From the NCBI GenBank assembly GCA_026129095.1, contig JAHCIT010000005.1, forward strand, positions 62,001-126,000: 64,000 bases of DNA, written 5' to 3'. Positions 439 through 19,428 of the stretch are shown here, piece by piece (position 1 is the first letter of the stretch; every line of letters starts with the position of its first letter). The notes below the pieces were generated by a model, which was not told where the DNA came from, did not search any database, and worked only from the letters and a program-made list of their open reading frames with translations. Position numbers and translations under genes: made by a program. This DNA is from Deltaproteobacteria bacterium. GTDB taxonomy: Bacteria > JAGRBM01 > JAHCIT01.

Positions 439-468
439 CGCTACTCTCCTTGGAGGATGACAAACTTG

Positions 469-717: not shown

Positions 718-723
718 TTTCTT

Positions 724-3700
724 TCAACCTTTCCGGGTGAGCTCGCCAGCCAGATAGCGTTGCATCCATCCGGACTCGTTTCCGGGCATCATCCCGCGCC
801 TGGTGGGCGCAAACAGCCCTACTCCACCCAAGCCCCCATCTTCGGCCTTGGATACCTTGACCAGTGTCTCTTTCGGAACGGTGTTGACCGCGTGGTTGTC
901 GGCTTCGCCGCCAAACAGGTAGCTCATGTACACTTTGGCCTTGTGGAACAGGCTGTCGAGCTGATGCATCGGCATCAGCCAGCCCCGTGTGATCGACTGG
1001 TGGGATCCGTACCGGTAGTTCGACTGGTATCCCGTATCGAGTGACTGGGCCCGCCCGTCTGGGCGCGTTTCGGCCGCTTTCACGGTACGCTCGGTTGCCA
1101 TCCATGCACCGTGCTTGATCATCACTATTCCATACGGATAGGCAGGGTTGTATCTCGCCCGCAGCATCAGCCGGGAAACCCGGTAGAACGGGTCATCGGG
1201 TTTCCAACCGGTATACGGCCGGTCGGCGGGATTAGCGTCCACATACACGTAGTCCCCATCCTCAATGCCCATTTCCCTGGCTGCCTGCGGATTGATATGA
1301 ACCTGATGTTCACCAACGCCAGCGGCACGTTTGTCCAGCCGGTAGGGGTCACCAAAATCGTTGTTCCAGATGAAATGCCAGTCCGTCGTAAACCAGGAAG
1401 AATGGGTGGAATGCCGGGACTTCGGCGTAAGGCAGATAAACTTGTAGCCTTTCTCCCATAACGGGTTCTTTGTCTTTTTGACTTCCTTCCATGGCAGCCT
1501 GATGTTGCGGATCTGCCGCTCATCCGCACCCATGTGGCCGGGAGGAATCCCGTAATCCTCCGGACGAATAAAGGGATTCGAGCTGACAATAACGTTTGGC
1601 AGGTAGGGGGTCGCTTCCGGACCTTCCCTGTGAACAATGAAGTTCTCGCCGTATTCGATCACCTCGGGCTCATCGTTGTATGCCTGGAGACGGCCCGTTG
1701 GTGTGTAGAATGGCTGTGGATCGTGAATCTGCTCATAGAATGCCACTCTCGGATAGGTCCGGAAATTAAGAAGGGCGACGCCGGACTCCCCGTACTTGCC
1801 GGACATGATATCGGCGAGCTTGTAACCGCGTGTCGTGGTGGAAGAGTCGAGCAGACGCTGGATATAGGCATCCGTGGAACCTTCCAGAACGAACTTCCAC
1901 ATGTCCGCAAACCGCGACTCTCCAACGAGATCTCCTATCTTCTTCGACATCTCCGCCAGGATTCGCGCATCGTCGCGGGTGTCATAAACCGGAGCCAGCC
2001 CGCCCTTCCATATCTGCAGGAATGGATTGGAACAGGAGGCAGTGATTTCATGCACCTGCGCCTCGACCCATGAATTTGCTGCCAATGCAATGTCACAGTA
2101 TTCAATCGTCCCGTTCAGCTCGATATCGGTCGACATGATCAATTCGACATTCGGGTTTACGTTCTGGACCATCTCGTAAACCCACTTGGCGTTGTTGATC
2201 AGGTTGACATTGGTGAACCACATGACCTTGGTGGGCGTCGGCATATGGCTGTGTCCGGTGAATGATTTCCGGCCGTATTTGGGCGTATCAACCACTAGGG
2301 CCTTGTCGCCGTAATTCCAGTAGCCGGGTTCCTCGTCCTTCGAATACATATGAGCGTGGATCGACTTTCCATCTGCCGAGGGATCTAGGTTCAGCTCCCA
2401 CGGATCCTCACCTATCCAGCCCTTGAATCCGGGGCCTGACCACTTGGACCCCTGGAAAATTGCAGCCTTGTAGTTCCCCGCCCACGTGTAACTTCCGGCA
2501 CCCGGTTCACCGATATTCCCTGTAAGGATCAGTGGCAGATAGACCGCCCGGTTCATCTCCGTGGCATGAAACCAGTGATTCAGTCCTTCTCCTACATGGA
2601 TCGCCACCGGCTTGATGGTGGCAATGTCATTGGTCAGCCGCCGCACCAGTTCCTTGGGAGCACCGGTAATCTCATGGACCGAATCCAGGTCGTAATCCTT
2701 CAGGTGAAGCTTGTAGAGTTCGAACAGAGGATAAACTTCGGCCGTTTTCCCATCGAGAAGCTTTATCCTGAATTTCCCTTCAAGTGCGGCATCAATGCCA
2801 AGACTGTCATAGCGTGTGCCCACATCGTCACGGCTCACCGGGACAGCTGCGCCGGCTTTCATATCCCAGACCATGTAATCACCGAGCGTCTCACGTTGCT
2901 CTCTGGTCAGGCCCTGTTCCTTCATGGAGGGAGAGTCCGAAAGGTCCTTGGGCTTGTATCCTGGAATTACATCCGCCGGCTGAAGGCGCTTGAGCGTATC
3001 GGCACGAACCAGCAGCGGGAAATCCGAAAACCGCTTGATGAACGCCGGGTCGTATTTCTTTTCGTCGATCAGCAGCTTTGTGATCCCGAGAAGAAGCGCT
3101 GTATCACTGGCTGGCCGGACCGGAATCCAGTAGTCCGATTTTGTTGCCGGCGGCGAATATTCAGGGGTAATCGTCACTATCTTGGCGCCGCGCTCCATGC
3201 ACTCGATGAAAAAGTGGTTGTCGGCGCGCTTGTTTTCGACGAGATTCTTTCCGATCTGGATGTGCAGCTTGGTGACCCGCATGTCGTTCATGTCGCAGTC
3301 GGCCGCCTGGAGACCGTGAACGAACGGGTGGCCCGGCGCCTGGTCACCATGCCAGGTATAGTTCGACCAGACACGCCCGCCCTTGGCCTTTTCCGGCCCA
3401 ACTTTCCGGACCTTTGCATCAAGCAAGGCCAGACTGTTGCAAAACCGGTACATGCCGTATTTGCCAATGACTCCCAGAAGCCCCATGCCCCCGCGACACT
3501 TGAACAGCCGCGTTCCGGCCCCCTCCCAATGCTCCAGCATTTCCGGCTGATAGCCCTGATCCAGGAGCCGCTTTTTACCCTCTTCGCCGCTGTATTTCCC
3601 GGCGATATGGATCATCCCCTTGGCGGCATAGGTATAGGCTTCATCCCACGAGGCCCGGATGAACTGGTCCTGGCCGCGCGCATTGAACTTGTATTTGGTC

Positions 3701-4209
3701 TTGTTCGCTTCGGTGAGTTCGGGAAATCCGTCATCTGCCCATTCTTTCCAACCTTTCCGGATGATGGGGTGTTTCAGGCGGTACGGACCGTATACCCGGC
3801 GCTGGAACGTAAACCCGTTCGAGCAGCCGCGCGGATTCCATGCGTGGGACGCCTGGTTTCCGTACAGATCGGTGATGCGGTGACTGTCGTAGTTCTGCTC
3901 CGCCCGGATAAATACGCCGTTCCGGACAAACGCCCGCATCCGGCACTCGTGCGTGCAGTTTGGCGAGCATACCCATGAAAAATGGGAATCGTACCGGTAC
4001 TGGTCCAGGTAGACCTTTTCCCATCCCCGTGACGGATAGTGCCTGAGCGGATTGGCAATGTCCGTGGGCTGGAGAAATCCAAAAGAGAACCGTGGTGAGG
4101 CGAGCGCCGCAGCCGTACCGGCGGCAGCACCTTTAAGAAATTTGCGGCGGAAAATATCAGTTCCCAAGGGAAGTCTCCTCTTGCCGTGACTCCTGGTGCT
4201 GGCTGGCAT
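724..4209 (-). CDS. nxrA: Type II DMSO reductase family Mo-bisPGD catalytic subunit, periplasmic NXR/pNar clade (NxrA/NarG-like)
   Basis: Tat motif FRRKFLK; FS0 motif CSPNCTHEC...NPRGC; Mo-ligand region WSNYTWHGDQ; RGGMGLLGVIGKYG; C-terminal TPKSRHSTHS and NHAVNTVPKETLVK. Confidence 0.93.
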   Translation of the reverse strand: MPASTRSHGKRRLPLGTDIFRRKFLKGAAAGTAAALASPRFSFGFLQPTDIANPLRHYPSRGWEKVYLDQYRYDSHFSWVCSPNCTHECRMRAFVRNGVFIRAEQNYDSHRITDLYGNQASHAWNPRGCSNGFTFQRRVYGPYRLKHPIIRKGWKEWADDGFPELTEANKTKYKFNARGQDQFIRASWDEAYTYAAKGMIHIAGKYSGEEGKKRLLDQGYQPEMLEHWEGAGTRLFKCRGGMGLLGVIGKYGMYRFCNSLALLDAKVRKVGPEKAKGGRVWSNYTWHGDQAPGHPFVHGLQAADCDMNDMRVTKLHIQIGKNLVENKRADNHFFIECMERGAKIVTITPEYSPPATKSDYWIPVRPASDTALLLGITKLLIDEKKYDPAFIKRFSDFPLLVRADTLKRLQPADVIPGYKPKDLSDSPSMKEQGLTREQRETLGDYMVWDMKAGAAVPVSRDDVGTRYDSLGIDAALEGKFRIKLLDGKTAEVYPLFELYKLHLKDYDLDSVHEITGAPKELVRRLTNDIATIKPVAIHVGEGLNHWFHATEMNRAVYLPLILTGNIGEPGAGSYTWAGNYKAAIFQGSKWSGPGFKGWIGEDPWELNLDPSADGKSIHAHMYSKDEEPGYWNYGDKALVVDTPKYGRKSFTGHSHMPTPTKVMWFTNVNLINNAKWVYEMVQNVNPNVELIMSTDIELNGTIEYCDIALAANSWVEAQVHEITASCSNPFLQIWKGGLAPVYDTRDDARILAEMSKKIGDLVGESRFADMWKFVLEGSTDAYIQRLLDSSTTTRGYKLADIMSGKYGESGVALLNFRTYPRVAFYEQIHDPQPFYTPTGRLQAYNDEPEVIEYGENFIVHREGPEATPYLPNVIVSSNPFIRPEDYGIPPGHMGADERQIRNIRLPWKEVKKTKNPLWEKGYKFICLTPKSRHSTHSSWFTTDWHFIWNNDFGDPYRLDKRAAGVGEHQVHINPQAAREMGIEDGDYVYVDANPADRPYTGWKPDDPFYRVSRLMLRARYNPAYPYGIVMIKHGAWMATERTVKAAETRPDGRAQSLDTGYQSNYRYGSHQSITRGWLMPMHQLDSLFHKAKVYMSYLFGGEADNHAVNTVPKETLVKVSKAEDGGLGGVGLFAPTRRGMMPGNESGWMQRYLAGELTRKG

Positions 4210-5134
4210 GACCAGCTCCCGCAGTTGTGATCATGATTTCAAGCCGTTCCTGGCACTGGCCACAGATGGCGCCGTGAACATCGGGGTAAAATGTCCCGAT
4301 TGCGTCTTTCAGGATGCCCTTGTCCGGGATATCGCCGGTCATGACGAACTCGGCCGCAGGGAAACCGCAGAATCCACACTCACAAATAGCCCCGCTTCGC
4401 AGCCGGCGCCGCTGCTGCTGGAGTCCTCTTGCAGCCTCGGCAAGATGCTCATGTGTGATCGTCCGGTGTGCGTCCAGCCACGGCTGGAATTCGGCCGCCT
4501 GCCCCCCTGACAACTGGTCCAACACGGAAAGACGCTCGGCATATTTATCTGTGGCTGCCCAGCCCGCCTTCCGCATGCGGTAATCTGCGTAGAGGGCCCA
4601 CAATAGTGAGTATGCACGGGTGAGCTGCTGGACTTCTGCCGGGTGCCGGCCAGCAAACACCGCATCACCGGTATAGACAAACTCCGGATTTACAAGGTCC
4701 TGGAGCTGAAGCCAGCTGAACTTGAGAAATGAGTCCAGTTTTGCGCCGTCAGTCAGGCTTCCAGCTGTTATGTACAGTGCTGCCTGATTGTTTCCCGCGG
4801 AGGCGTCTTGGTTCCCGGGGAGATCTGCCCCCTCGTCTCCAGACTGGCGTGCCTGGAAAACGACGATTTTCCTGAGCCGCTTCGTGATGAGCGGAAAGTC
4901 CGCCAGGGATTCCTGAAAAACTTCGGGATACCCGAGTTTCTCGAATAATGAGTGGTATACAGTCCTGAATTTCGCTTCACGTACCGCGTCTACCGCCGTT
5001 TCTGCATATATCCTGTCGGCCTGTCGGCGAAAATCGGATTCAAGACGGTGAGCCAGCCGGTCGACAGCAGACCGGATTCGCAATTCGATCGCCGTCTCGA
5101 TCAGGAGAGGATCGAATTCGAAGTCTGTGCCCAT
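4157..5134 (-). CDS. Hypothetical protein with C-terminal CxxC...CxxC metal-binding motif; first gene of the nxr operon
   Basis: ATG at 5134 preceded by GGAGAGAGG (ORF extends to 5224); stop overlaps the nxrA start by 53 bp; CECGFCGFP...CGQC. Confidence 0.8.
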   Translation of the reverse strand: MGTDFEFDPLLIETAIELRIRSAVDRLAHRLESDFRRQADRIYAETAVDAVREAKFRTVYHSLFEKLGYPEVFQESLADFPLITKRLRKIVVFQARQSGDEGADLPGNQDASAGNNQAALYITAGSLTDGAKLDSFLKFSWLQLQDLVNPEFVYTGDAVFAGRHPAEVQQLTRAYSLLWALYADYRMRKAGWAATDKYAERLSVLDQLSGGQAAEFQPWLDAHRTITHEHLAEAARGLQQQRRRLRSGAICECGFCGFPAAEFVMTGDIPDKGILKDAIGTFYPDVHGAICGQCQERLEIMITTAGAGHASQHQESRQEETSLGN

Positions 5135-5240
5135 TCGCCTCTCTCCAAATGCACTCCCGGCAATAACCTCTACAGATGAAATATCCACAGAAAATACCGG
5201 CTTGGACTTCCTAGTTACCGACACCCCCGCGGCTCACGAT

Positions 5241-5254
5241 ATGACAGGTATCAT
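5241..5254 (-). promoter_or_regulatory. Possible FNR/DNR/CRP-family box upstream of the nxr operon
   Basis: ATGAT-ACCT-GTCAT on the minus strand versus consensus TTGAT-N4-ATCAA. Confidence 0.3.
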
Positions 5255-5448
5255 CATCAGAATAATGAAGAAGCGCGGTTTCCACGGACGTCGGTACAGA
5301 TTTGGAAAGACAAGAACTCTCCCTATGGATCCCTGACCGGGCTGATCTGAAATTTTTGGTGGAGGATCTCACCTCCGAATACCGGCCACTCGGAGCACAA
5401 GGAAGGTCACTCACCTGCCCCGCCTCATATCAGCCTTATGCCCCCACA

Positions 5449-5500
5449 GGGCGCACATGACTTTGCTTTTTTGTCCGGAAACCTACGAACTTCTACGAAC
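5449..5500 (+). repeat. att-proximal 52-bp repeat, copy 1, containing CTACGAAC twice at 10-bp spacing
   Basis: 50/52 identical to 13051-13102. Confidence 0.9.
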
Positions 5501-5539
5501 TGGCACGACGGTTTCCCCGTAACTGGAGAGGGTTAAAGG

Positions 5540-5590
5540 GCCGGACTCTTAATCAGCGGGTCGCCGGTTCGAGCCCGGCATCTCCCACCA
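5540..5590 (+). pseudogene. 3' half of tRNA-Lys(CTT); putative attR
   Basis: GACTCTTAATCAGCGGGTCGCCGGTTCGAGCCCGGCATCTCCCACCA has anticodon loop, T-arm and CCA, but no D-arm and a broken 5' anticodon stem. Confidence 0.85.
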
Positions 5591-5878
5591 CACCTTCCCC
5601 CGGCAGCTAAACCCCCGGTATCCCTGTCAGATTGCAGGAATGGGTCCATTACGGCCGGTTCCGGCCAAGACCGCCCGAACTCCTGAAAAACGGGAGCGGA
5701 TGACTTTGGGACAGCGTTTTCGCTGGCAAGCGGGGCTGGTCTTGTGACCTTCCCACAGAGAGCAGGTACAGTTTTTGGGGTGAGGTTGAGACTGGCACCG
5801 CACCAGTTGGTCCATGTTATACGAGTATACGGCTTTCGGTGATTACTCCCGCGAGCCCGAAAGCAGGCGGCCGTAAGC

Positions 5879-6136
5879 GTGAAAACCCCGTCTTCAGTCT
5901 TCAATGATCTCTCAAGATGGCTGGAAGCCTGTGGATGCAGTTTCTCCGGAGAAGAAGTTGGCCGTCTTATTGACCAGGCACTCGACCACCACGAATCCCC
6001 GCAGGTTCTGGTCTCGGCAATTCTCGATCGTTGCTCTGCATTCGACGAATACAACGGAGAACTGCTCTTCCAGTCCGTTTTTGCTCTCTGGAACGACAAG
6101 GCCCGGGAATGGAACCGGGCCCGGCGGTTCAACTAG
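5879..6136 (+). CDS. Small hypothetical protein
   Basis: 85-aa ORF converging on and overlapping the activator stop; no motif recognised. Confidence 0.45.
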   Translation: MKTPSSVFNDLSRWLEACGCSFSGEEVGRLIDQALDHHESPQVLVSAILDRCSAFDEYNGELLFQSVFALWNDKAREWNRARRFN

Positions 6137-7634
6137 GCTCCTCATCAACCCGGACCCCGGAACGAATCAGCCGGTTGTGAAGCGTGGTCCGGGGGATCCC
6201 CAGCAGCCGTGCGGCCTGGGACAGGTTTCCGCCTGACAGGTCCAGTGCCCTGCGAACGAGAGCCAGTTCGAATTCCGCCAATGTCCGGTCCAGATCGAAC
6301 GATCCCCCGAAGTCAGAATCCTTTACCTCGATAATAACCGTCCTGCTGACGGTTGATGGCCGGGCGGCTTCCGCGTCGATGTGGATCACATCAGGCGGTA
6401 TCCGGCCTGACTGGACCGTAATCATCGCCCGTTCAAGGACGTTTTCCAGTTCCCGGACGTTTCCCGGCCAGCCATATTCGCTCATCCGCCTGATCGCCTC
6501 GCTGTCGATGCCAGTGACCGACGTCCCTAGCCGGTTATTCAGCTTCTCAACAATCGCTCTCGCAAGCATTGGCAGGTCATCAATGCGCTCGCGAAGCGGC
6601 TTGAGTTCAACCGGATAGACGGAGAGACGGTAGTACAGATCCTGCCGGAAGCGGCCAGCTTCAACCTCTGCGAGCAGATTCCGGTGCGTCGCCGCAATGA
6701 TACGGCAGTCGCTCCGTTCGGCCCGTTCGGCTCCGACCGGCAGATATTCACGGTTCTGAATCGCCCTGAGGAGCTTCACCTGGATTTCGAGCGGCGCCTC
6801 GCCGATCTCGTCGAGAAACAGCGTGCCACCGCGTGCGACCGAGAATGCCCCCTTGCGCGACTGGGTGGCGCCGGTAAACGAACCCCGCACATGGCCAAAC
6901 AGTTCGCTCTCCACCAGATCCCTGGGCATGGCGGCAAGATTGATTGAAACAAACGGCCCCTTGGCCTTCTGGCTCAGAACGTGGATTATCCGTGCGGCCA
7001 CTTCCTTTCCCGACCCCGTTTCTCCCTGAAGCAGAACAGTCGTCGGAAACGGTGCCACAGTTTCAATCGCGGCAACCACATTGGGGTCCAGATCTTCTTT
7101 CCGGACAAGAATATCCGCCGCCTGAAGGAGCTCATCGGTCAGGTGGACCTTCACGGGTTCCGGCCGGTGCTTCCAGTTGTGCAATGCATCCAGCCGCCGG
7201 AACAGAACAGACTCGGCCGTTGGGATGCACAGATAGTCCCTGAACCCCACATCAAGAGCCCGCCGGGCCAGTGCCATTTCCTCATGAGACAGGCAGGCGA
7301 GTCCCGGCGAAATTCTCAATGCCTCGACCAGAGAACCGGAAATATCCTGTTCCCGCTCCAGGATGCAGACCCAGATTTCGCCCGGATGGACGGGTAGCGG
7401 ATTCAGCACTTCGCGAAGGGAACGGAAGGGCTCGCCCCGCATTCCGGCCCATCGGTTGGCCGATATTTCAAGTGACCGGCTCTGTCCCACAAACAGCACA
7501 AAGAAATCCTTCGACGAAAAACCGTCAGGCAGGACAACAACATCGCCCAGAAGTGGATATTTTGGATGATCTGGAGAGATATATAAACCCGAAATCTGTA
7601 TTACTTCCAGATAGTTACAAAAAGAGACATTCAC
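6129..7634 (-). CDS. Sigma54-dependent activator (degenerate receiver-like N-terminus, AAA+, Fis-type HTH); true start may be downstream
   Basis: GETGSGKE, ESELFGHVRGSFTGA, LFLDEIGE, FRQDLYYRL, WPGNVRELEN, GNLSQAARLLGIPRTTL. Confidence 0.93.
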   Translation of the reverse strand: MNVSFCNYLEVIQISGLYISPDHPKYPLLGDVVVLPDGFSSKDFFVLFVGQSRSLEISANRWAGMRGEPFRSLREVLNPLPVHPGEIWVCILEREQDISGSLVEALRISPGLACLSHEEMALARRALDVGFRDYLCIPTAESVLFRRLDALHNWKHRPEPVKVHLTDELLQAADILVRKEDLDPNVVAAIETVAPFPTTVLLQGETGSGKEVAARIIHVLSQKAKGPFVSINLAAMPRDLVESELFGHVRGSFTGATQSRKGAFSVARGGTLFLDEIGEAPLEIQVKLLRAIQNREYLPVGAERAERSDCRIIAATHRNLLAEVEAGRFRQDLYYRLSVYPVELKPLRERIDDLPMLARAIVEKLNNRLGTSVTGIDSEAIRRMSEYGWPGNVRELENVLERAMITVQSGRIPPDVIHIDAEAARPSTVSRTVIIEVKDSDFGGSFDLDRTLAEFELALVRRALDLSGGNLSQAARLLGIPRTTLHNRLIRSGVRVDEEPS

Positions 7635-7649
7635 GGCATCCTTTTTGAG
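7634..7649 (+). promoter_or_regulatory. Putative sigma54 -24/-12 promoter for the ligase operon
   Basis: CGGCATCCTTTTTGAG: GG-N10-GA versus TGGCAC-N5-TTGC (the -12 C is replaced); about 40 bp upstream of the ATG at 7690. Confidence 0.4.
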
Positions 7650-7689
7650 CTTGTCCCCTCAACCGCACTTCCCCGCGATGGAGGGTTCG

Positions 7690-10581
7690 ATGCCTTTCGA
7701 CCAGAGTGTTAACGGACCCTTTCCCGGACTGGCGGCCATACCATTAACGCTGGCCAATCCCGACGGAAATCCGGCTACCGCACTGCTGGATATACCGGAA
7801 ATGGCGGACGGGCCCTTGATTCCGGTTCTCGTGCCGCCAGTATTCGGACGTCCGAAAGAGGAACTTGGGCCCGTATCAGAGGCTCTCACGGCCCAAAACC
7901 GATTTATCGTGTTCCGGCCTGCATTCCGGTCCACAGGTGACGAAGCTCCCGGCAATCTCGATGACATGTATCTGTCGGGAGAGGAATGCACCTACTGGGG
8001 CCGGTATCTCAGGTCAGAACAGTTCCATACGCTCTGCCGGAACAGGCAGCCAGACATCCAGATCGATACCCGTGTTGCCTGTGTGGCCATGTCCATCGGG
8101 GCCACACAGGCATTTCTGTCCCAGGCCGAACACCAAACTTTCGATGCGCTTGCCCTTCTGTCCTTCGTTCCCCACTACCCGACATTCGTCCGGAACAAGG
8201 TCAAACGCGACTACTACGACCTCGTATCGATCGCCTGGGCACTTCGGATGAAGTCACGGCCCGGCTGGGCCGCCTGTTGCGGGGCAATTGCCGCCCGCAA
8301 AGCCGAAGAAGGCGAAGACCGAGAGACGGCCCGGCGGTATCAGCTGCTGGCAGACCGACTCTCCAACACCTCCAGAATCGACCGGAGCCAGATGGCCTCG
8401 ATGCTCGAAGGAGTGCCGGTCAACGCCTTCTCCGGCATCTGGAATGCCATTCGTGGCACTTTTGATTGCCGCTATGATCTTGAGGCGAATCTGCAGTCGA
8501 ACGCCAAAGTCGGGATTCCGCTTACCTTCATATCCGGCGGCAAGGATGACTACTTCCTGCAGGAAGAGATGGACGAATTCATTGCCCTGGCACGCCGTGA
8601 AGGCCGCGTCCGGCGGCTGCTCCGCCTTGAGAATGCCTGTCACCAGCTCCGTCCGTATCCCTGTTTCGAAAAAGCCATGGAGTTTGTCATCCAAGGGCTA
8701 TATAGCGATCTTGGAATTCAGGACGTACCTGTTCCGTTCTCACTAGCAAGAATAGCGGTCCGCCGGTTTTACGAGGTCCGGGGATTCGCCCTGCGCCATT
8801 CCAAAGACCTGGGCGCACCACCGGAGTTGACCCAAAAGGTTCTGCTTTCCAGCGAGGATCTCGCCCGGGTACTCGGGGAACTGTTCAAGCGCCCGGCAGA
8901 AACCGGCGCACTGGTCCGGCTGCTCGCCAGATCAGCGGAACAGATCGGTGGCGAACGGAGCATTCTCGACGAACTGGAACCGGTCCGGATAGGAAAGATC
9001 CTCAACAAATCGCTTTCACCGGAATTGTACCCTTCCATCGCAATAGGACTCTCTGAAGTTCCCGAACTGATCGGCCATCTGTTCCCAGACCATCTGCTTC
9101 AGGCGCTGGATCCGGAACACCTGGATGGATTGCTCCAGGAATTGCTCCGCCACACAGAAGCACTGGAAGCGTTCCTGACCACGGCAAATCCGGAACTGCT
9201 GCTCTCTCTTGGCAGGCGCAAGGCCCTCGCAGCCGCGCAACGTGCGATAAAACTGGTACCGGCTTTTACTGGACACAATCTACCGAAGGATCTCGATCAG
9301 GTTCCGTTCACCAGCAAGGAAGACTATGTCGAGGCGTTCCCGCTCGAAGACAGGTGCATCCACCGGGAACTTCCGCGGGAAGGGCTCATCGATGAATCGA
9401 GCGGTTCCAGCGGAATCCCAACCAACTGGACCCGTTGCCGCGAGGAGGAAGACCGGCTCGCAAACGGTGCCCGGTTCATCTACCGGTTCCTCTTTGGCCG
9501 TCCCGGTGACGACCGCCCGGTAATTCTGCTCAACGGTTTCAGTCAAGGTGCCTGGGCGACGTCAACCAAGCTAACCGTGCTCGCCCGCCATGTGGCACTC
9601 GTCAAGAATATCGGCCCGGAAGAAGAGCGTATTCTGGATTCCCTCGAGTACTTCGGCCGCCGTTACCGTTACATTATCGCCGGGTATCCGCCGTTTCTGA
9701 GGGAACTTGTCCGGGCCGCCACGGAACGGGTGGGGTTTGATTTGAAACCATATACCATCGATATCCTGCATGGCGGCGAAGGCTATACGGCCGGATGGCG
9801 ACGTTATCTTGAAGTGAATCTGGGATCGGGTGCCCGGATCGTGTCTTCATACGGTGCCTCGGATCTTGATCTCGGCGTTGCATACGAAACCACCCTCGCC
9901 CTCGTGGCCAGAAAAATACTGGAGGAAAACCCTGAGTTCCGCCGGGCCCTTCTGGAGACAGAGCGGATTCCGGTGTTTTTCGGCCAATATAATCCGATAG
10001 AGTTCTTTCTGGAAACCCGCCGCCACGACGGAGAATGCAGGACCCTCGTCTGCACCGTGACTAATCTGAAAGCGCACCAGCCCCGCATCCGTTACGATAT
10101 CGGAGACGAAGGGGATATCCTCCCATTTGACCGGATTGTAAACACGGCAAGGGAGTTCGGATTCGACCTGCCAGCATCAGGTTCCCTGAAGTTTCCGTTC
10201 GTCTACATATTCGGCCGTCTCGACGGGACCATCAGCATTGACGGTGCGAATGTTTATCCCGACCAGGTGCACGAGGCGATCCTGACCGATCATCAGCTGG
10301 CTCCCCTGGTCCGCGGCTTCCGTCTACGCCGTTCGGAAAACAGTTCCGGAGAAGTGCGATTCGAAATCGATCTGGAAATGTTCGGGGATGAGACAACGGG
10401 TGGCCCTGATGTCAGCACGGTTGCGGGCAAGCGGATATGCGATTATCTTGCGAAAGTGAACATAGATTTCCGTGAATCGCTGGCTCATAACCCGGCAGCC
10501 ACCAGTCCGGAAGTCAGGGTAGTCCGACCGGGTGAACTGGGAATCGGCACGACCATCAAACGCCGGTATGTGGATCGCTAA
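7690..10581 (+). CDS. Fusion: LuxD-like alpha/beta-hydrolase (acyl-thioesterase/transferase) + helical linker + PaaK/LuxE-like adenylate-forming ligase
   Basis: GGAGGG RBS before ATG 7690; triad-like VAMSIG / GKDDY / ACHQL; C-terminal PFTSKEDY, SSGSSGIP, AGYPPFL, GGEG, SYGASD, RYDIGD, GRLDGTISIDGANVYP. Confidence 0.8.
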   Translation: MPFDQSVNGPFPGLAAIPLTLANPDGNPATALLDIPEMADGPLIPVLVPPVFGRPKEELGPVSEALTAQNRFIVFRPAFRSTGDEAPGNLDDMYLSGEECTYWGRYLRSEQFHTLCRNRQPDIQIDTRVACVAMSIGATQAFLSQAEHQTFDALALLSFVPHYPTFVRNKVKRDYYDLVSIAWALRMKSRPGWAACCGAIAARKAEEGEDRETARRYQLLADRLSNTSRIDRSQMASMLEGVPVNAFSGIWNAIRGTFDCRYDLEANLQSNAKVGIPLTFISGGKDDYFLQEEMDEFIALARREGRVRRLLRLENACHQLRPYPCFEKAMEFVIQGLYSDLGIQDVPVPFSLARIAVRRFYEVRGFALRHSKDLGAPPELTQKVLLSSEDLARVLGELFKRPAETGALVRLLARSAEQIGGERSILDELEPVRIGKILNKSLSPELYPSIAIGLSEVPELIGHLFPDHLLQALDPEHLDGLLQELLRHTEALEAFLTTANPELLLSLGRRKALAAAQRAIKLVPAFTGHNLPKDLDQVPFTSKEDYVEAFPLEDRCIHRELPREGLIDESSGSSGIPTNWTRCREEEDRLANGARFIYRFLFGRPGDDRPVILLNGFSQGAWATSTKLTVLARHVALVKNIGPEEERILDSLEYFGRRYRYIIAGYPPFLRELVRAATERVGFDLKPYTIDILHGGEGYTAGWRRYLEVNLGSGARIVSSYGASDLDLGVAYETTLALVARKILEENPEFRRALLETERIPVFFGQYNPIEFFLETRRHDGECRTLVCTVTNLKAHQPRIRYDIGDEGDILPFDRIVNTAREFGFDLPASGSLKFPFVYIFGRLDGTISIDGANVYPDQVHEAILTDHQLAPLVRGFRLRRSENSSGEVRFEIDLEMFGDETTGGPDVSTVAGKRICDYLAKVNIDFRESLAHNPAATSPEVRVVRPGELGIGTTIKRRYVDR

Positions 10582-10613
10582 CGGACTGGCATCATTGAGG
10601 AGATAGGCAGGCA

Positions 10614-12272
10614 GTGAACCTCCAATCAGCCATCCTGCTACTGCTTGGAATCTCCCTCATTCCGCTGGCGGGCTATGTCTACAGGTTTGCTCACGACCGG
10701 GCCGAGGCACGCTGGTTTGCTCTGGGAGTCGTTGCGGCGTCTACTTATCTCATGGCCATCGCCATGATCGATCTGGCCCCATCTGACCGGGCAGCCCTTT
10801 GGGCCACCCGTTTGGCTTATGCAGGCCCCAGCATCGGCTTCCCCGCGATGATCCTGCTCGTCCGCAGAATCCTTCTGGCTACAGACGCCTCCCGGTCACT
10901 GTCAGCATTGCTGTTTCTGGCCTCCATCGCCGCCCACTCATTCGCCCTGTTTGGCGGCTCGGTGATCTCCGGAATCGACCGGACGACCATGCCCCCATCC
11001 TTTGTCTACGGACCATTCGCAATTGTCCCGCTGTCTTTCGATGCCGGAATACTCCTGTTTCTGGTTGCCGTCGTCATACGTGACTGGCCCAAGGCACCTT
11101 GGAGAGCCCAGAACCGGTTTCTCGTTCTGGTTGTTTCCCTGATCCTCTGGACGTTTTTCACCATCACTTCCAACCTGGTCCTGCCCATTCTCTACGGAGA
11201 TAACCGGTACTATCTGGTTGGCCCTGCCCTGCTTTTGCTTCCCGCCTGCGGCGGCGCCTGGGTCATTGCAGGAGAGCGGCTGCCGGATCTGCTTGCAATG
11301 GCAGGCCGGCTGTTCCCAAACGGGCGTTCCCGGTTGCTTCGGAAACTCGCCGATCTGGAACAGGGCCTGCTTGAGTTGCCAGACATTCATGCTCTCGTTT
11401 CAGAACTGGAGGGAGTGATGGGAGGCCGGCAGTTTGCCTACGCAGGAGCCGGAGACGGACTCAGCTTTACCCCGGGAGCCGTGGATTTTCTATACAAACC
11501 CGGTGACCGGCAGCGTGTCGAGAAACTGGCGAGCCATTACGCCCATTCTCCGGAAACCCTGGATGAAAACCTCCTGCTGACCGGATGGACGGAAGTTATC
11601 GGCTTTGCCGAGCCTGTAGCCTCTCCGTGGCCCGTCTCTTCTGCCCGGGAGATCGAGGTGATAAACAGGATGACCACCTCTCTCGCGGCTGAACCAGTGG
11701 TGATCCTTTCCGCAACAGGATATCTCGATACGATTTCCATCAAGTCCCTTGCCAAACAGGTCCGGCGAAGCCTGGTCTTCACGGCTGAACTGGTCGCAAA
11801 ACTGGATGGCGGCCGCGAGGATGCGGTCCGGTTGCTGAAGGAAGAACGGAACCTCAGGGATGTCATGATTGTCATCCGGCTGGCGGAGCAGGCCCGTGCC
11901 GAACATCTGGAAACCACGGTTTCCGCCTGTGTCTCAGATGGAGCCAAGCTCCTGCTCGTTACTGCTATGGACCGGAACGATCTGATTGGATACGGCCTCT
12001 TCGGCGGTACGGATATCAATCTTCAGGAAGCTCCCCTCTTCGCCTTGGGCAGTCCGCTGCAACGGGCTTCCAACATATCGGTCCATCTGGATCTCATTCT
12101 TTCCCGGCTCGAAGCCAGCTACGGCACCTTCTTCCGCCTGACGCCGGAAGAGAGACACTCGTTCTGCCGCCGGCAGTGGCGGTCAATCCAGGAACTGGAG
12201 TTTGAACTGGAAAAGCATCTGCTGATGTTCCGTTTTTCCCCTTCGGCAAGCCAGAAAGGAATACCCGTATGA
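10614..12272 (+). CDS. Membrane protein with about 7 N-terminal TM helices (HisKA_7TM-like) and a degenerate cytoplasmic AAA-like domain
   Basis: First ~220 aa hydrophobic; C-terminus resembles the sigma54-activator AAA lid; GAGGAG RBS; stop overlaps next start (ATGA). Confidence 0.7.
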   Translation: MNLQSAILLLLGISLIPLAGYVYRFAHDRAEARWFALGVVAASTYLMAIAMIDLAPSDRAALWATRLAYAGPSIGFPAMILLVRRILLATDASRSLSALLFLASIAAHSFALFGGSVISGIDRTTMPPSFVYGPFAIVPLSFDAGILLFLVAVVIRDWPKAPWRAQNRFLVLVVSLILWTFFTITSNLVLPILYGDNRYYLVGPALLLLPACGGAWVIAGERLPDLLAMAGRLFPNGRSRLLRKLADLEQGLLELPDIHALVSELEGVMGGRQFAYAGAGDGLSFTPGAVDFLYKPGDRQRVEKLASHYAHSPETLDENLLLTGWTEVIGFAEPVASPWPVSSAREIEVINRMTTSLAAEPVVILSATGYLDTISIKSLAKQVRRSLVFTAELVAKLDGGREDAVRLLKEERNLRDVMIVIRLAEQARAEHLETTVSACVSDGAKLLLVTAMDRNDLIGYGLFGGTDINLQEAPLFALGSPLQRASNISVHLDLILSRLEASYGTFFRLTPEERHSFCRRQWRSIQELEFELEKHLLMFRFSPSASQKGIPV

Positions 12273-12712
12273 CCCCAGCGCAAGGCGAAAAGATCTATCA
12301 ACTCCGGACCAAACTCGGACTCACTCCCCAGCAATTTGGACGCATGGCCGGAGTAACGGCGGTGGTTGTTGCCAAATGGGAATCCGGTTTTGCCGAACCC
12401 GGCTGGCTGGCGCTCGGCCGGATAAGACGCGCCTGCGACGTCGACCTCAACTGGCTGCTGGACAGCGGCGATGACCGGCCGGACTATCTCCAAAACGCTG
12501 CCATCTGCGAGGGGAAGCTCGTCGATTCATCACTCCCTAAAATCAGCCGGAATCTCGAGCAAAAACTGATTGGCGACTACCGCAAGCTGAACGAAATCGA
12601 CAGGAGCTTCGTCAGAATGGTTCTGGAAACAGTCGGGAAAACTCCAGAAGTACCTGTGGCCAGGAGGTCGTCTCCCAAATTGCGCCCAAATCCATCAGAC
12701 AAGTTTGTCTAA
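12269..12712 (+). CDS. XRE-family HTH transcriptional regulator
   Basis: LRTKLGLTPQQFGRMAGVTAVVVAKWESG...VDLNWLL. Confidence 0.88.
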   Translation: MTPAQGEKIYQLRTKLGLTPQQFGRMAGVTAVVVAKWESGFAEPGWLALGRIRRACDVDLNWLLDSGDDRPDYLQNAAICEGKLVDSSLPKISRNLEQKLIGDYRKLNEIDRSFVRMVLETVGKTPEVPVARRSSPKLRPNPSDKFV

Positions 12713-13050
12713 ACGACCACCGTCACAGCCTTTGGATACAAATGGTCCCTTAATCCCATTCCCGGTCTTAAATAGAACCGGTTTCATGAATGCCTGGGGA
12801 GGATCAGGAGTAAAGTTTGGCAGATGAAGCCGAAGAAGTTTTCCGGATAAAACTCCGTGCCTGGCAAACATTTTTCAGAACCAGCCGATTCAGGCGAACA
12901 GGCGCTCGATATGCGGCGAAACCCCGCTCGCCATAGCCGCCGGAGAAAAACCTCTCCACCTCGTCGTTATCGGACGTGGCGCAAAGCCGCTGGTGGCTGT
13001 CTGTAAAGCGATCAAGACCAGCGAACATCTTTTCGTCGTCTCGGTTCGCC

Positions 13051-13102
13051 GGGCGCACATGGCTTTGCTTTTTTGCCCGGAAACCTACGAACTTCTACGA
13101 AC
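13051..13102 (+). repeat. att-proximal 52-bp repeat, copy 2
   Basis: 50/52 identical to 5449-5500. Confidence 0.9.
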
Positions 13103-13148
13103 CTTGAGAATTACTGATATTTCTGGCCGCAGTTCGCGGAATGCCAGT

Positions 13149-13194
13149 GCCGGACTCTTAATCAGCGAGTCGCCGGTTCGAGCCCGGCATCTCC
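13149..13194 (+). pseudogene. Second 3' fragment of tRNA-Lys(CTT); putative attR, lacking CCA
   Basis: 45/46 identical to 5540-5585. Confidence 0.85.
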
Positions 13195-13203
13195 TGTCGC
13201 AAG

Positions 13204-14007
13204 CTACTTGCCGAATAATCCCATCAGCGTGCCAGGGGCCTTGGGCATCAGGCGCGAGAGGGCGTCGAGGACTCTGGCGTCCGGACCGATCAGCAGGCGG
13301 GGTTCGTTAGACTGGATGGCATCCGCGATCTGCCGGGCGGCTAACTCCGGCTTCACGCCGAACTTTGCCACTAGACCCCTGCCCCGGTCTTTCAGCGTGG
13401 TGGCTTTGCCCCGGTAGCGGGCGGCGGCGGGAATGTTCGTCCGGACGGCACCGGGATGGACGCAGGTGACGCCGATATGTTTCGATGCCAGTTCGGCGCG
13501 CAGTGTCTCCGAAAATCCCCGTACGGCGTGCTTGGTCAGTACGTAACCCGGCATGCCGGCGATGGGCATGAAACCGGCTATGCTCGAAATGTTCACGATG
13601 TGTGCTTCAGGCCGGTTCTCAAGCAGCGGCAGGAAGAACTTGCAGCCATAGATCACGCCCCACAGGTTGACGCCGATGACCCACTCGAAGTCCTCGATCG
13701 TGTGATCTGCGAAACCGCCCAGCAGCGCGACGCCGGCATTGTTCACCAGGATATCGGCCTGCCCGTGCTCACCAAGGACCGCTCCGGGGAGCTTTTCCAT
13801 CTCGTCCCGCCTGGAGACATCCATCCGGTGGACTGACGCCCTTCGGCCAAGTCCCTCGACACGCTGGCGGACCGATTCGAGACCGGTTTCATTGATATCC
13901 ACAAGGGCGACATCGCAACCCCGAAGGGCCAGCTCAAGGCTCACGGCCTCGCCGATCCCGCTACCGGCACCCGTTATAACGGCAACCTTTCCGGTGAGGT
14001 CTTTCAT
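13204..14007 (-). CDS. SDR-family oxidoreductase
   Basis: TGAGSGIG, NNAG, YVLTK. Confidence 0.93.
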   Translation of the reverse strand: MKDLTGKVAVITGAGSGIGEAVSLELALRGCDVALVDINETGLESVRQRVEGLGRRASVHRMDVSRRDEMEKLPGAVLGEHGQADILVNNAGVALLGGFADHTIEDFEWVIGVNLWGVIYGCKFFLPLLENRPEAHIVNISSIAGFMPIAGMPGYVLTKHAVRGFSETLRAELASKHIGVTCVHPGAVRTNIPAAARYRGKATTLKDRGRGLVAKFGVKPELAARQIADAIQSNEPRLLIGPDARVLDALSRLMPKAPGTLMGLFGK

Positions 14008-14011
14008 GAAC

Positions 14012-14848
14012 TTATTTCGGCGGAGTTTTCATCATCCCTCGCGGGTCGATGAGCAGCTTGTGCACCTGCATGTTGTGGGAATGGCCAAGCTGCTGGAGCG
14101 ACATCGCCGCCTGCAGCGCCGTCCAGAGGCCCTGAGCATCCTGGGTCTGGTTCACCGACTGCTTGGCCAGCCGGAGCCCCATGCTGGGCCGGGAAGCGAT
14201 CTTCGAGGCCAGTTCAAGCGTCCGCTTTTCCAGTTCATCCCTCGGTACCACCTGATTCACCATGCCAAGCGCCTTCGCTTCGGCAGCTGTGACCGGATCC
14301 CCGGTAAAGAGCATTTCCTTCGCCTTGCGAACGCCGACTTCCCAGGGGTGGGCGAAATACTCGACACCATTCACGCCGAAACCGACGACCGGGTCTGAAA
14401 ACGTCGCATCATCACTGGCAATGATGAGGTCGCAGACCCAGATCAGCATCAGCCCGCCGGCAATCGTCTTTCCCTGCACCTGGGCGATCGTCGGCTTCGG
14501 CAGATTTCTCCAACGCCAGCAAAGACCGAGATAAATCTCTTCCTCTTGCGCCATGTACCCTTCGGCTCCCGGCAGGTCGAAGCCGCCCCAGTTCGTGACC
14601 GGAGTGAACGACGTCAGGGGCGTATTGTCCCGAAGATCGTGTCCCGAAGAAAAGTGCGGACCATCGGCGGCGAGGACGATCACCTTCACGTCCTTGTCAT
14701 GCGCTGCCAGGTCGAACGCGGTATTGATCTCATAGAGCATCTTCTTGCTCTGGGCGTTCCGGGTCTCTGGGCGGGCCAGGGTGATCCGGGCCACTCCGGC
14801 AGAGGGGGAATCATAACGGATTGTGGTGAACTCGGGATCTGTGCCCAT
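14012..14848 (-). CDS. Enoyl-CoA hydratase/isomerase family protein
   Basis: RPETRNA, FSSGHDL, KPTIAQVQG..AGG. Confidence 0.93.
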   Translation of the reverse strand: MGTDPEFTTIRYDSPSAGVARITLARPETRNAQSKKMLYEINTAFDLAAHDKDVKVIVLAADGPHFSSGHDLRDNTPLTSFTPVTNWGGFDLPGAEGYMAQEEEIYLGLCWRWRNLPKPTIAQVQGKTIAGGLMLIWVCDLIIASDDATFSDPVVGFGVNGVEYFAHPWEVGVRKAKEMLFTGDPVTAAEAKALGMVNQVVPRDELEKRTLELASKIASRPSMGLRLAKQSVNQTQDAQGLWTALQAAMSLQQLGHSHNMQVHKLLIDPRGMMKTPPK

Positions 14849-14872
14849 GCTGTCCGCTCCCTGAAACCGGGC

Positions 14873-15631
14873 TCAGAATGCCACGCGTTTCGTAAAACCG
14901 CCGTCGGCGACCAGATTGATACCAGTGACAAGACTCGCCACGGGACTTGCAAGAAAAGCGGCGGCCCGTCCGATCTCTTCCGGTGTACCCATGCGGCCGA
15001 TGGCGCACTGCCTGACGGTCTGTTCATAGAACGCCGGCATGCCTTTCTTCATCATTTCCCACTGCCCGCCCTCGAAGATCACCGGACCGGGTGAAATGCA
15101 GTTCACACGGATCCCCTTTGCCGCGTACATCTGGGACAGGCCCTTGGCATGGGTAATCAGGGCCGCCTTGAGCGCGCTGTAGGGGATCGGGGCCATGAAA
15201 TACTCGACTGCCGCCGTGCTGCTGATGAACACCACGCTGGCCTCGCCACTTTTCAGGAGAAACGGCAGCGCAGCGTCAAAACATCTCACGCTCCCCATGA
15301 GATCGGTCTCGAAATTCGCCTGCCAGGCGGCTTCTCCGGGGTTTCCTCCACCAGTCGGATTCGGCACCAGGATGTCGATTCCACCGAGTTGTCCGGCGGC
15401 TTCGGCGATCCAGGTCTTCAGCGTCTTTGCATCCTTTACATCGACGGATTTGGTAAACACTCTCCCGCCATGGCGGGCAAGACTCTCTGCAGCCGTCTTG
15501 AGTCCCGCCTCGTTGCGGGCACAGACAGCGATGTCGGCACCTTCGGCCGCGAGTGTTTCGGCTATGGCCCGACCGATGCCACGGCTGGCCCCAGTCACGA
15601 TCGCCTTCTTGCCCTTCAGTTTCAGATCCAT
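14873..15631 (-). CDS. SDR-family oxidoreductase (FabG-like)
   Basis: TGASRGIG, YSALK, IRVNCISPG, ADGG. Confidence 0.93.
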   Translation of the reverse strand: MDLKLKGKKAIVTGASRGIGRAIAETLAAEGADIAVCARNEAGLKTAAESLARHGGRVFTKSVDVKDAKTLKTWIAEAAGQLGGIDILVPNPTGGGNPGEAAWQANFETDLMGSVRCFDAALPFLLKSGEASVVFISSTAAVEYFMAPIPYSALKAALITHAKGLSQMYAAKGIRVNCISPGPVIFEGGQWEMMKKGMPAFYEQTVRQCAIGRMGTPEEIGRAAAFLASPVASLVTGINLVADGGFTKRVAF

Positions 15632-15660
15632 GCTTTCCTCCCGGCAGGCCTGCTCTTGGC

Positions 15661-15683
15661 TTTAACACGTTTAAAATGTTAAA
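15661..15683. promoter_or_regulatory. TetR operator(s), TnnAACnnGTTnnA type
   Basis: TTTAACACGTTTAA plus overlapping TTTAAAATGTTAAA, between the divergent SDR and TetR genes. Confidence 0.7.
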
Positions 15684-15733
15684 CGCAATATGGTTTATCC
15701 GGAAAATCCCCGGACCATTACAGGAGCGTCGGC

Positions 15734-16420
15734 ATGGGTCTTCTGGAAAATCAGCGGCAGGAACGGATCGACAGGATCATGGAAACCGCCCGGCGAATGA
15801 TCGCCGAGCGGGGCTATGAAGGGGTCAACATGCGGGATCTCGCAGCAGCGAGCCGGGTGTCGGTTCCGACGCTCTACAACCTTTGCGGAGACAAGGCGGA
15901 ACTACTGTCCCGGTCCATGCAGGGACAGTTCTCGACCCTTCTCAAGACGATAGACCGGGAAACCCGCACGAAGGGCCTTGACAGGGTGATATCCATTGTC
16001 ACCCGGTGCAGCTCGGAAATGCTGCGACTGTCGCGCTACTCCCGGGCCGTCCTCGATGTGTTTGTGAACTCCGGGCAGATGCGGGAGGTGAGCGAGATGA
16101 TCGCCGGTGCTCTTGCACGGGACATCGAAAACGCCCTCCATGAAATGAAATCATCCCGCGAAATCGAGGCATGGGTCGATCCCCGTATCCTGTCAGAACA
16201 GGTCGCCAGCCATCTCATCATCTGTGCGCTCCAGTGGGAGAGTGGCTATCTCAGCGACAAGGCCCTGCCGGCCTCGATGCTGTACGGTTCCTGCCTCATG
16301 CTGCGGGGAGTTGCGGCGGGTCCGGCGGCCAGAGTGCTGGAGAAACGGATCCGTACCGTGCAGGCCGATGCCTATTCTGAAAAACCAGCCCGCCGGCAAC
16401 CGGCAAGCCGCACGTCCTGA
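15734..16420 (+). CDS. TetR-family regulator
   Basis: ARRMIAERGYEGVNMRDLAAASRVSVPTLYN. Confidence 0.93.
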   Translation: MGLLENQRQERIDRIMETARRMIAERGYEGVNMRDLAAASRVSVPTLYNLCGDKAELLSRSMQGQFSTLLKTIDRETRTKGLDRVISIVTRCSSEMLRLSRYSRAVLDVFVNSGQMREVSEMIAGALARDIENALHEMKSSREIEAWVDPRILSEQVASHLIICALQWESGYLSDKALPASMLYGSCLMLRGVAAGPAARVLEKRIRTVQADAYSEKPARRQPASRTS

Positions 16421-16452
16421 TGTGATTGGGAAGACTGTCCGGCCATGGAACA

Positions 16453-17997: not shown

Positions 17998-18008
17998 CGT
18001 GAGGTCGG

Positions 18009-19394: not shown

Positions 19395-19428
19395 CTCTGC
19401 TCCCTCCAGTCACCCGGCAACGACAGAA

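Follow-up and report, generated by a model that had tools for sequence, protein, structure and literature searches.

The 64,000-nt stretch of contig JAHCIT010000005.1 (positions 62,001–126,000; Deltaproteobacteria bacterium, assembly GCA_026129095.1) analyzed here, referred to in the following as the window, carries near its left end a cassette of four genes, encoding a sigma54 enhancer-binding protein (EBP), an enzyme fusion, a seven-transmembrane (7TM) protein and an XRE-family regulator. With moderate confidence, we interpret the cassette as a sensor-gated, sigma54-type operon for a bifunctional acyl enzyme, carried as cargo on a mobile unit that has no integrase. The most interesting and testable feature of this account, the best supported of those considered, is a proposed kinase-free link from the 7TM protein to the EBP through a catalytically dead AAA+/lid module. 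The gene combination is genuine, and it is conserved within the small lineage to which it belongs. An earlier interpretation made from the letters alone, which we call the sequence-only reading, had seen in these genes a quorum-sensing-type circuit on a tRNA island. The four open reading frames (ORFs) that it had named are all intact and stand in the order and orientation that it gave, with the EBP gene divergent from the other three, which lie on the (+) strand. The 7TM and XRE genes are coupled, as it had stated, sharing 4 nt at an ATGA. The features of the cassette are as follows:

6129..7499 (−): sigma54 EBP, 456 aa, start from orthologs and sequence; predicted domains are a pseudo-receiver (residues ≈1–135), then AAA+, lid and Fis-type helix-turn-helix (HTH)
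7500..7689: divergent intergenic control region, 190 bp
7634..7649 (+): −24/−12-like element CGGCAT-CCTTT-TTGAG, 56 nt upstream of ATG 7690
7690..10581 (+): enzyme fusion, 963 aa; predicted alpha/beta hydrolase part (residues ≈15–345), helical linker (≈350–540) and PaaK-fold adenylate-forming domain (≈540–963)
10614..12272 (+): 7TM sensor-like protein, 552 aa; predicted seven-helix bundle (residues 1–224), poorly modelled linker and degenerate EBP-type AAA+/lid (≈320–545) without Walker A or B
12269..12712 (+): XRE-family HTH protein, 147 aa, its start overlapping the 7TM stop (ATGA)

The EBP gene was read from GTG 7499, which is most likely the start, rather than from 7634, because the long ORF aligns with its orthologs (456, 456 and 462 aa) only from residue 46 and because AAGGA precedes this GTG. 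The fusion starts at ATG 7690, preceded by GGAGGG; the database form of the protein has 963 residues, which places the start at this ATG and thereby gives an intergenic region of 190 bp. A variant of the whole unit from another study, about 95% identical, has all nine of its listed indels outside the ORFs, consistent with selection on all the genes. A public run labelled as RNA, available as contigs, covered coding and non-coding parts alike at flat depth, and is therefore uninformative on transcription, which it does not show.

The activator and its predicted contact with the 7TM protein

The EBP matched Sigma54_activat (PF00158, 7.1e-63), AAA_lid_14 and HTH_8 (5.4e-11), and contains a Walker A motif (GETGSGKE), a GSFTGA loop and a Walker B motif (LFLDE). 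These features assign it to the bacterial sigma54 EBPs, with a complete AAA+ motor; sigma54 itself is encoded in the same genome, on contig C17 (PF04552, 5.3e-61). The protein shares with the NtrC/LuxO-type EBPs the order of its three domains, an intact AAA+ domain with a GAFTGA-type loop and a Fis-type HTH, but differs from them in its receiver and in that the cassette encodes no histidine kinase. Its N-terminal domain aligns with that of a true receiver-EBP and gave no Response_reg match in Pfam. The acceptor position holds Glu in three of the four orthologs and Asp in one, and the conserved receiver Lys is absent from all four, with I-P in place of K-P. The domain is thus probably a pseudo-receiver, and not a phosphorylatable receiver of the NtrC/LuxO type. 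Against the LuxO model the EBP scored 256.9 bits (cut-off 800), and all its NCBIfam equivalog scores were far below their cut-offs.

The N-terminal bundle of the 7TM protein, residues 1–224, was the only part of the model used in the wide structure search. It resembles G protein-coupled receptors (GPCRs), with Z 16.4 and a root-mean-square deviation of 3.2 Å over 218 aligned residues, compared to a background of Z ≈14 for helical bundles. The window protein scored 19.4 against HisKA_7TM (PF16927; cut-off 28.6), which its ortholog at locus L006 passes at 31.4; the ortholog at L004 and the paralogs at L019 and L022 gave no match to this family at E ≤ 0.001. Neither HisKA nor HATPase_c was found in the 7TM protein at E ≤ 0.01.

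The C-terminal domain of the 7TM protein resembles the AAA+ domain of EBPs in the Atlas model (TM-score 0.52–0.57), and a second, independent model matched FlrC (1e-3) and PspF (3.8e-3); together, the two models match FlrC, PspF, FleQ and NtrC-type domains. When the domain was compared by hhalign with the alignment of the cassette's own EBP, the two were matched with a probability of 89% (E 2.2e-6). The L004 ortholog also passes the cut-off for AAA_lid_14 (PF25601; 28.4 vs. 27), while the window protein itself gave no Pfam match to the lid. No Walker A or B motif was found in this domain in any of four sequences. Taken together, sequence and models suggest that the cytoplasmic end of the 7TM protein is related to the AAA+/lid modules of EBPs and is catalytically dead.

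A complex prediction of EBP residues 1–400 with 7TM residues 300–552 scored 0.63, compared to 0.00 for the best of three controls. Of 80 solved complexes, 58 reached this score, as did 2 of 110 mismatched pairs, in a calibration that holds only roughly here, where the prediction was made from alignments of our own. At least 75% of the contacts agreed between runs, and the partner pLDDT (predicted local distance difference test) was at least 58. The predicted interface lies between the alpha4-beta5-alpha5 region of the pseudo-receiver and the lid helices around an invariant L-x-P-E-E-R, and the contacts with the lowest error fall on invariant residues (P511, E512 and R514 of the 7TM protein; A78, D88, P93 and E96 of the EBP). 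The prediction supports, short of showing it, a binding of the 7TM C-terminus to the EBP pseudo-receiver.

EBPs under the control of a partner protein are familiar from the pairs PspA–PspF, NifL–NifA, FleN–FleQ and HrpV–HrpS. As in those systems, direct binding of a partner, rather than phosphorylation, is proposed here. The difference is that the partner would be a 7TM membrane protein, that its binding module would be a dead EBP-type AAA+/lid, and that the predicted target is the pseudo-receiver and not the AAA+ ring. Partner-protein control of EBPs is the subject of three published accounts (PMC8528422, PMC12998190, PMC3105312). Within the partial coverage of our literature search, no 7TM partner of an EBP with a dead AAA+/lid was found described. 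Should the contact prove real, signals would pass from a 7TM membrane sensor to sigma54-dependent transcription with no kinase involved, and the docking piece would be a degenerate copy of the AAA+/lid that the activator itself carries. The partner-controlled EBPs, so far a short list, would gain a class.

In two different metagenome-assembled genomes, the contig breaks at residue 287 of a window-type 7TM gene (L017, G001:C21; L018, G002:C32). This residue lies within the poorly predicted linker (residues 225–319, pLDDT <50).

The enzyme fusion and its candidate promoter

The fusion gave no Pfam family at E ≤ 0.01, and its matches in NCBIfam were limited to weak ones to PaaK. Its score against the PaaK equivalog TIGR02155, 25.7 bits, is so far below the cut-off of 646.3 that a dedicated phenylacetate-CoA ligase is unlikely; an enzyme making only phenylacetyl-CoA was the alternative against which the sequence-only reading had set its own interpretation. 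By Foldseek, the C-terminal half matched 4r1m (1.9e-16) and PaaK1/2 (≈1e-13), with PDB profile matches at 3e-4. Five of the six homologs have the loop SSGSSG.PT (SSGSSGIPT in the window fusion) and the sixth has SGGTSGRPT; YGASD, RYD.GD, GR.DGT and Lys957 are invariant among them. We take the loop and Lys957 to be what is called the phosphate loop and the C-terminal catalytic Lys in the ANL superfamily. On the basis of its motifs and predicted fold, the C-terminal domain is assigned to the ANL adenylate-forming enzymes (PaaK fold). It shares fold and adenylation motifs with the PaaK-family ligases, but it differs from them in the score just given.

Among the nearest named folds of the N-terminal part are LuxD-type clusters of PF02273 (TM-score 0.63–0.65). 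A 1174-aa relative has a PF02273/LuxD-like N-terminus (1.2e-10 and 1.8e-10), aligning to fusion residues 39–98, followed by the same C-domain. Ser135, Asp286 and His318 are invariant in six of six homologs, and in the model they follow strands in the canonical order. By structure, the N-terminal ≈345 residues are an alpha/beta hydrolase with a Ser-Asp-His triad, for which a catalytic role is predicted.

This arrangement recalls the lux fatty-acid reductase, in which LuxD is the acyl transferase and LuxE the acyl-protein synthetase, in that an alpha/beta-hydrolase acyl transferase would be paired with an adenylate-forming enzyme. Here, however, the two parts are in one chain, joined by a helical linker of ≈190 residues, and LuxC reductase and luciferase are lacking; the window fusion matches neither PF02273 nor the LuxE model, and the partner in sister loci is a PapA5-like condensation enzyme.

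The architecture is very rare. Six full-length fusions were found in a word-indexed search of 5.8 billion clusters, in which 8000 candidates were scored, and a profile search over 1.84 billion entries gave 1723 representatives at E ≤ 0.001, with three full-length fusions among the best 150. Nearly all the listed relatives of the C-domain cover only profile positions ≈480–964 and are mostly proteins of ≈500 aa; ten of those listed were checked, and none had an adenylating-domain match above threshold in Pfam. The fusion thus appears to be built on a large, unnamed family of PaaK-fold enzymes that has no Pfam entry, and solving one substrate would annotate many proteins of that family. A tblastn search with a stand-alone C-domain relative against plasmids gave two records. 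The Nonomuraea locus among them is unannotated, and Pfam searches on ten picked ORFs there found only an alpha/beta hydrolase nearby and a PQQ-repeat protein, which is uninformative. A literature search of partial coverage, without supplements, that included LuxD/PaaK fusions and HisKA_7TM found no description of the cassette.

The sequence-only reading had described the element at 7634–7649 as a near-consensus −24/−12 site. The GG of the −24 box is present, but the C of the −12 box is replaced by A. Because there are four mismatches to TGGCAC-N5-TTGCW, and because an equally weak match should turn up by chance ≈1.08 times per 190 nt on each strand, this description does not hold; the element is not among the 21 sites in the window with two or fewer mismatches (26.2 expected by chance). 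The position of the site, however, is conserved. A YGGC-N7-TTGR site lies 50–58 nt upstream of fusion starts supported by a ribosome-binding site in six of six loci, representing five independent lineages, and the DNA surrounding the six sites is not alignable. The chance of a site in so narrow a span is ≈0.05–0.07 per locus (365 sites in 64,000 positions). Since four further independent lineages have one in the span, which was chosen after seeing the data, chance is an unlikely explanation. In the genome, TGGCAY-N5-TTGN occurs 70 times, compared to 18–28 times for scrambled −24 controls, and no sigma70-type consensus site was found in the intergenic region at the tool's threshold. A sigma54-type promoter driving the fusion operon is likely but unproven.

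Recurrence in relatives, proposed mechanism and rival explanations

A divergent EBP gene, the fusion and a downstream 7TM gene occur together in three of the five fully flanked fusion loci (the window, L004 and L006), with 46–52% identity, and an EBP gene accompanies the fusion on one further, cut-off contig (L002). In the two other fully flanked loci, L003 and L005, both the EBP gene and the 7TM gene are absent. At L003, L005, L006 and L007 the fusion gene is followed by one for a PapA5-like condensation enzyme, separated from it at L006 by the 7TM gene. Co-occurrence of all four genes, which the sequence-only reading had made a test of its proposal, thus holds for the EBP–fusion–7TM part but not for the XRE gene, which is conserved only in close relatives and in trios lacking the fusion, and is not found in the two distant EBP–fusion–7TM loci. 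The XRE protein itself scored 33.1 bits against HTH_3 (cut-off 23), by which it is classed as an XRE-family HTH regulator. At one of the distant loci, a second sigma54 EBP gene (L004:14629–16104, (+)) stands where the window has XRE; its product has a receiver recognized by Pfam, and a search with the GAFTGA pattern found no loop in it.

The 7TM family was found in all five other genomes of the order and in none of 35 genomes outside it; the fusion is present in five of the six genomes of the phylum, counting the window's own. Three loci, L019, L020 and L022 (in G001, G002 and G003), lack the fusion but hold paralogous trios, each made up of genes for an XRE protein (38% identity), a 7TM protein and an EBP-like protein. 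The EBP-like proteins of these trios, of 392–410 aa, have weak Sigma54_activat matches and no HTH_8 match. At L019 and L022, the trio is followed by OmpA-like, unknown, ChaN-like and ParA/AAA_31 genes. A 1209-aa polysaccharide-deacetylase protein is encoded near the L019 trio. In all six loci in which both genes were seen (the window, L004, L006, L019, L020 and L022), the 7TM gene adjoins the EBP or EBP-like gene, in two different gene orders.

Because there are fusion loci without the regulatory genes and trios without the fusion, the sensor/EBP/XRE set appears to be a lineage-specific regulatory module used with different targets, of which the fusion is one. The fusion, for its part, can apparently dispense with the module and act together with a condensation enzyme. 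The link between enzyme and sensor is not obligatory.

In the account that we prefer, the divergent EBP would drive the fusion, 7TM and XRE genes from a −24/−12-type promoter ≈56 nt before the fusion start codon. The fusion would be a cytoplasmic, bifunctional acyl enzyme, in which the PaaK-fold domain would activate a carboxylate as acyl-AMP and the LuxD-like Ser-Asp-His acyl transferase or thioesterase domain would take or hand over the acyl group. The compound formed would be acylated and probably lipid-like, and in the sister loci it may be finished by the PapA5-like condensation enzyme. Control would proceed without phosphorylation: the dead AAA+/lid of the 7TM protein would bind the alpha4-beta5-alpha5 face of the pseudo-receiver, and the membrane sensor would hold or release the activator on a membrane or external cue, with the XRE protein as a second layer of transcriptional control. 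As the role of the cassette, we prefer envelope or secondary-lipid modification under sensor control to cell–cell signalling.

Several observations weigh against this account. On the side of the contact, the Foldseek E-values for the AAA+ match of the 7TM protein are marginal (≈1e-3), and the complex prediction, apart from its rough calibration, may pass through memory of the receiver–AAA+ contacts inside solved EBPs. On the side of the promoter, besides the chance frequency of sites as weak as 7634–7649, all six upstream sites have A or G at −12 in place of C. A rough count over the genome, with small numbers per −12 base, placed TGGCAY-N5-TTGC/T sites upstream of long ORFs more often (6/14 and 8/17 cases) than those with TTGA/G (5/24 and 3/15), compared to a baseline of ≈20%. 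As for the enzyme, no significant hydrolase family of Pfam was found in the N-terminal 360 residues of five out of five homologs, where only weak generic hydrolase matches appeared at E ≤ 10. The fusion and 7TM models have mean pLDDT values of only 63.2 and 64.3, from alignments of six and four sequences, respectively, and the hydrolase part of the fusion model is mostly below 50. Finally, the genome, which is 96.65% complete, yielded no condensation partner (tblastn at 1e-3, three queries) and no carrier protein.

The weakness of the models also leaves some room for a more generic sigma54 stress or envelope regulon, in which sensor and EBP make no contact. The 7TM and XRE proteins would then act independently, for example as a membrane enzyme or transporter and as an island repressor, and the EBP would be constitutively active through its Glu-bearing pseudo-receiver. 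A Glu at the acceptor position could indeed mimic phosphorylation. Island repressors often sit near integrase or tmRNA genes, and the XRE gene of one relative is likewise found beside a tmRNA gene, 1.1 kb away from an integrase gene. We nevertheless consider this explanation rather unlikely. It does not account for a complex prediction that passes where the controls score 0.00 and whose contacts fall on invariant residues, nor for a 7TM C-terminal domain that appears homologous to the EBP lid; in addition, the 7TM gene stands beside an EBP or EBP-like gene in all six loci described above, in either gene order, and the XRE gene stays next to the 7TM gene in the trios.

The preferred account, of an acyl enzyme under sensor control, must also be weighed against the quorum-sensing circuit of the sequence-only reading. 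In that proposal, the fusion would synthesize a diffusible acyl signal to be received by the 7TM protein, and the EBP and XRE proteins would pass on the response, which would give an autoinduction loop. As that reading had noted, genes for transport and catabolism are absent from the unit, and a single enzyme fusion is accompanied by three regulatory genes. Enzyme and sensor also appear to be co-transcribed under the EBP in three of the five fully flanked loci, the 7TM fold is GPCR-like, and a sensor inside the operon that it regulates would provide feedback. The layout of synthase, membrane sensor and sigma54 activator is that of CqsA/CqsS/LuxO, but the analogy is one of layout only. A CqsA-type synthase is a pyridoxal phosphate (PLP)-dependent acyl-CoA transferase, whereas the fold of the fusion is hydrolase plus PaaK-like; the 7TM protein has no kinase domains; and the EBP has lost the residues of a phosphorylatable receiver and falls far short of the LuxO cut-off. 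None of the defining features of that circuit was found, nor did the fusion show similarity to a known autoinducer synthase, having no Pfam family and only the weak PaaK matches in NCBIfam. Moreover, enzyme and sensor are separable: two of the five fully flanked loci have the fusion without sensor or EBP, and three loci have the sensor/EBP-like/XRE trio without the fusion, beside envelope-type genes. A dedicated autoinducer receptor would explain this pattern less well than a lineage-specific sensor module serving different targets. A quorum-sensing role with a diffusible signal is possible but unsupported, with a poor chance of being correct.

A combination of the two ideas can also be imagined, in which the cassette is mobile and self-contained and signals from 7TM protein to sigma54 independently of phosphorylation. 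A GPCR-like receptor would use its dead AAA+/lid as a decoy to tether the pseudo-receiver EBP at the membrane, and would let it go when it senses an acyl compound that the LuxD-like/PaaK-like fusion, co-transcribed with it, has made. We regard this as a long shot. If true, the 7.6-kb unit would unite an autoinducer chemistry and a type of receptor that are both new.

The tandem tRNA-Lys(CTT) units

The cassette lies in a unit bounded by direct repeats, with the following features outside the four genes:

5449..5500 (+): 52-nt repeat, tandem CTACGAAC-TT-CTACGAAC; right-end arm of the preceding unit
5537..5585 (+): 3' fragment of tRNA-Lys(CTT), running from the anticodon loop to the acceptor end and bounding the unit on the left
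5586..5878: non-coding left arm, its first 87–159 nt 85–94% identical with those of the other units
5879..6136 (+): small ORF of no family, 85 aa, convergent with the EBP gene
13051..13102 (+): 52-nt repeat that forms the right-end arm here
13146..13194 (+): 3' fragment of tRNA-Lys(CTT); right boundary, with unique chromosomal sequence beyond

The 52-nt blocks (5449–5500 and 13051–13102) are spaced by 7602 nt and the 49-nt blocks (5537–5585 and 13146–13194) by 7609 nt, and each pair is 96% identical. The 49-nt block corresponds to positions ≈30–72 of the genome's tRNA-Lys(CTT), and the intact tRNA on contig C14 contains the fragment at 5537–5585 unchanged as its 3' part. Since the contig has five copies of the repeat block, 96–100% identical, this unit is one of four in tandem, with lengths of ≈4.1, 16.6, 10.1 and 7.6 kb. 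The unit studied here (5586–13145) is the last, and only the last tRNA fragment of the array runs into unique sequence. The array occupies positions 1–13194 of the window and 36.5–75.2 kb of its own contig, C19 (loci L024 and L025). All four units have in common the first 87–159 nt of the left arm (85–94% identity), which are also found in the sequence after the tRNA on C14, as well as the 52-nt right arm.

The intact tRNA-Lys(CTT) was found only at the end of C14, a different contig, where it is followed by the same ≈90 nt as those at 5586. At the unit itself, no tRNA was called by ARAGORN, whose sole call in the window was a tRNA-Lys(TTT) at 46174–46250, or by Rfam (positions 1–20000). Of seven PF00589 integrase matches in the genome, none falls at contig positions 36.5–75.2 kb, and the nearest are at 19.2 and 111.7 kb. 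The tRNA island of the sequence-only reading thus stands in part: the direct repeats derived from the 3' part of a tRNA and the mobile character are borne out, but there is no intact tRNA at or next to the unit, and no integrase.

The cargo of the other units was surveyed by annotating ten picked ORFs. Unit 1 carries genes for an ArdC-N-like protein, a Fic/DOC protein and a HAD hydrolase; unit 2, of 16.6 kb, those for PAS kinases, a REC-GGDEF protein and a REC-sigma54 EBP; and unit 3, those for MoaA, an EB_dh/cytochrome c subunit, a 4Fe-4S subunit and a 1161-aa molybdopterin oxidoreductase. Unit 3 looks like a complete ethylbenzene-dehydrogenase-type enzyme (type II DMSO reductase family) on a mobile unit. 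The oxidoreductase gene lies at window positions 724–4209 (−), its translation beginning with a twin-arginine-like N-terminus, and its partners are at L025:1544–6438.

The 7TM and XRE genes of the window type were also found as a pair in two related genomes (75–77% and 70–71% identity), at contig ends; in these genomes, G001 and G002, homology to the window stops just past the XRE gene. In one of the relatives, a tRNA-Pro lies 2.5 kb from the pair, and in the other the pair adjoins a tmRNA gene and a tyrosine integrase gene (PF00589, 2e-37). Because of the repeats and the tandem array here, together with the different chromosomal contexts in the relatives, we interpret the cassette as mobile cargo, which in this genome apparently rides on a unit without an integrase.

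Its place on such a unit raises the question of an anti-phage defence or island-maintenance module. Fic/DOC and ArdC-N-like genes are carried in the same array, and the XRE protein has weak PADLOC matches to RmrA/CapH-type defence regulators (3.9e-8 and 3.6e-5). However, no PADLOC model matched the fusion or the 7TM protein, the EBP was matched only through its AAA+/HTH part, and paralogous fusions occur in ordinary chromosomal contexts together with a condensation enzyme. Such a role is very improbable.

No joint removing or circularising the unit was found in the public runs, all four of which consist of contigs. Joints in the runs at 6470–6799 were rejected, their sides being short and derived from the conserved AAA+ regions of other organisms. 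A loose end at 5544 carries the 5' half of another organism's tRNA-Lys and is uninformative on this site.

The array resembles the tycheposons, whose serial integration at a tRNA site is described as displacing older elements inward, with partial tRNAs remaining in between (bioRxiv 10.1101/2020.12.28.424599). Repeated integration at one tRNA, with partial tRNAs between the units, would be common to both. The present array differs in that all four units lack an integrase yet have kept their left and right arms, and the lineage is unrelated. Tandem units of this kind, without integrases and with conserved arms, show how a little-known phylum of six species shuffles metabolic and regulatory modules.

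The 85-aa ORF at the left end of the unit gave no NCBIfam or Pfam match; in a related genome (L002), an ORF with 70.6% identity over 85 aa stands at the same place by the EBP gene. Elsewhere in the window, a tyrosine-integrase match at 49720–50196 (−) (C19:111720–112196) lies ≈3.5 kb from the tRNA-Lys(TTT) at 46174–46250 (+), and may mark another integrated element.

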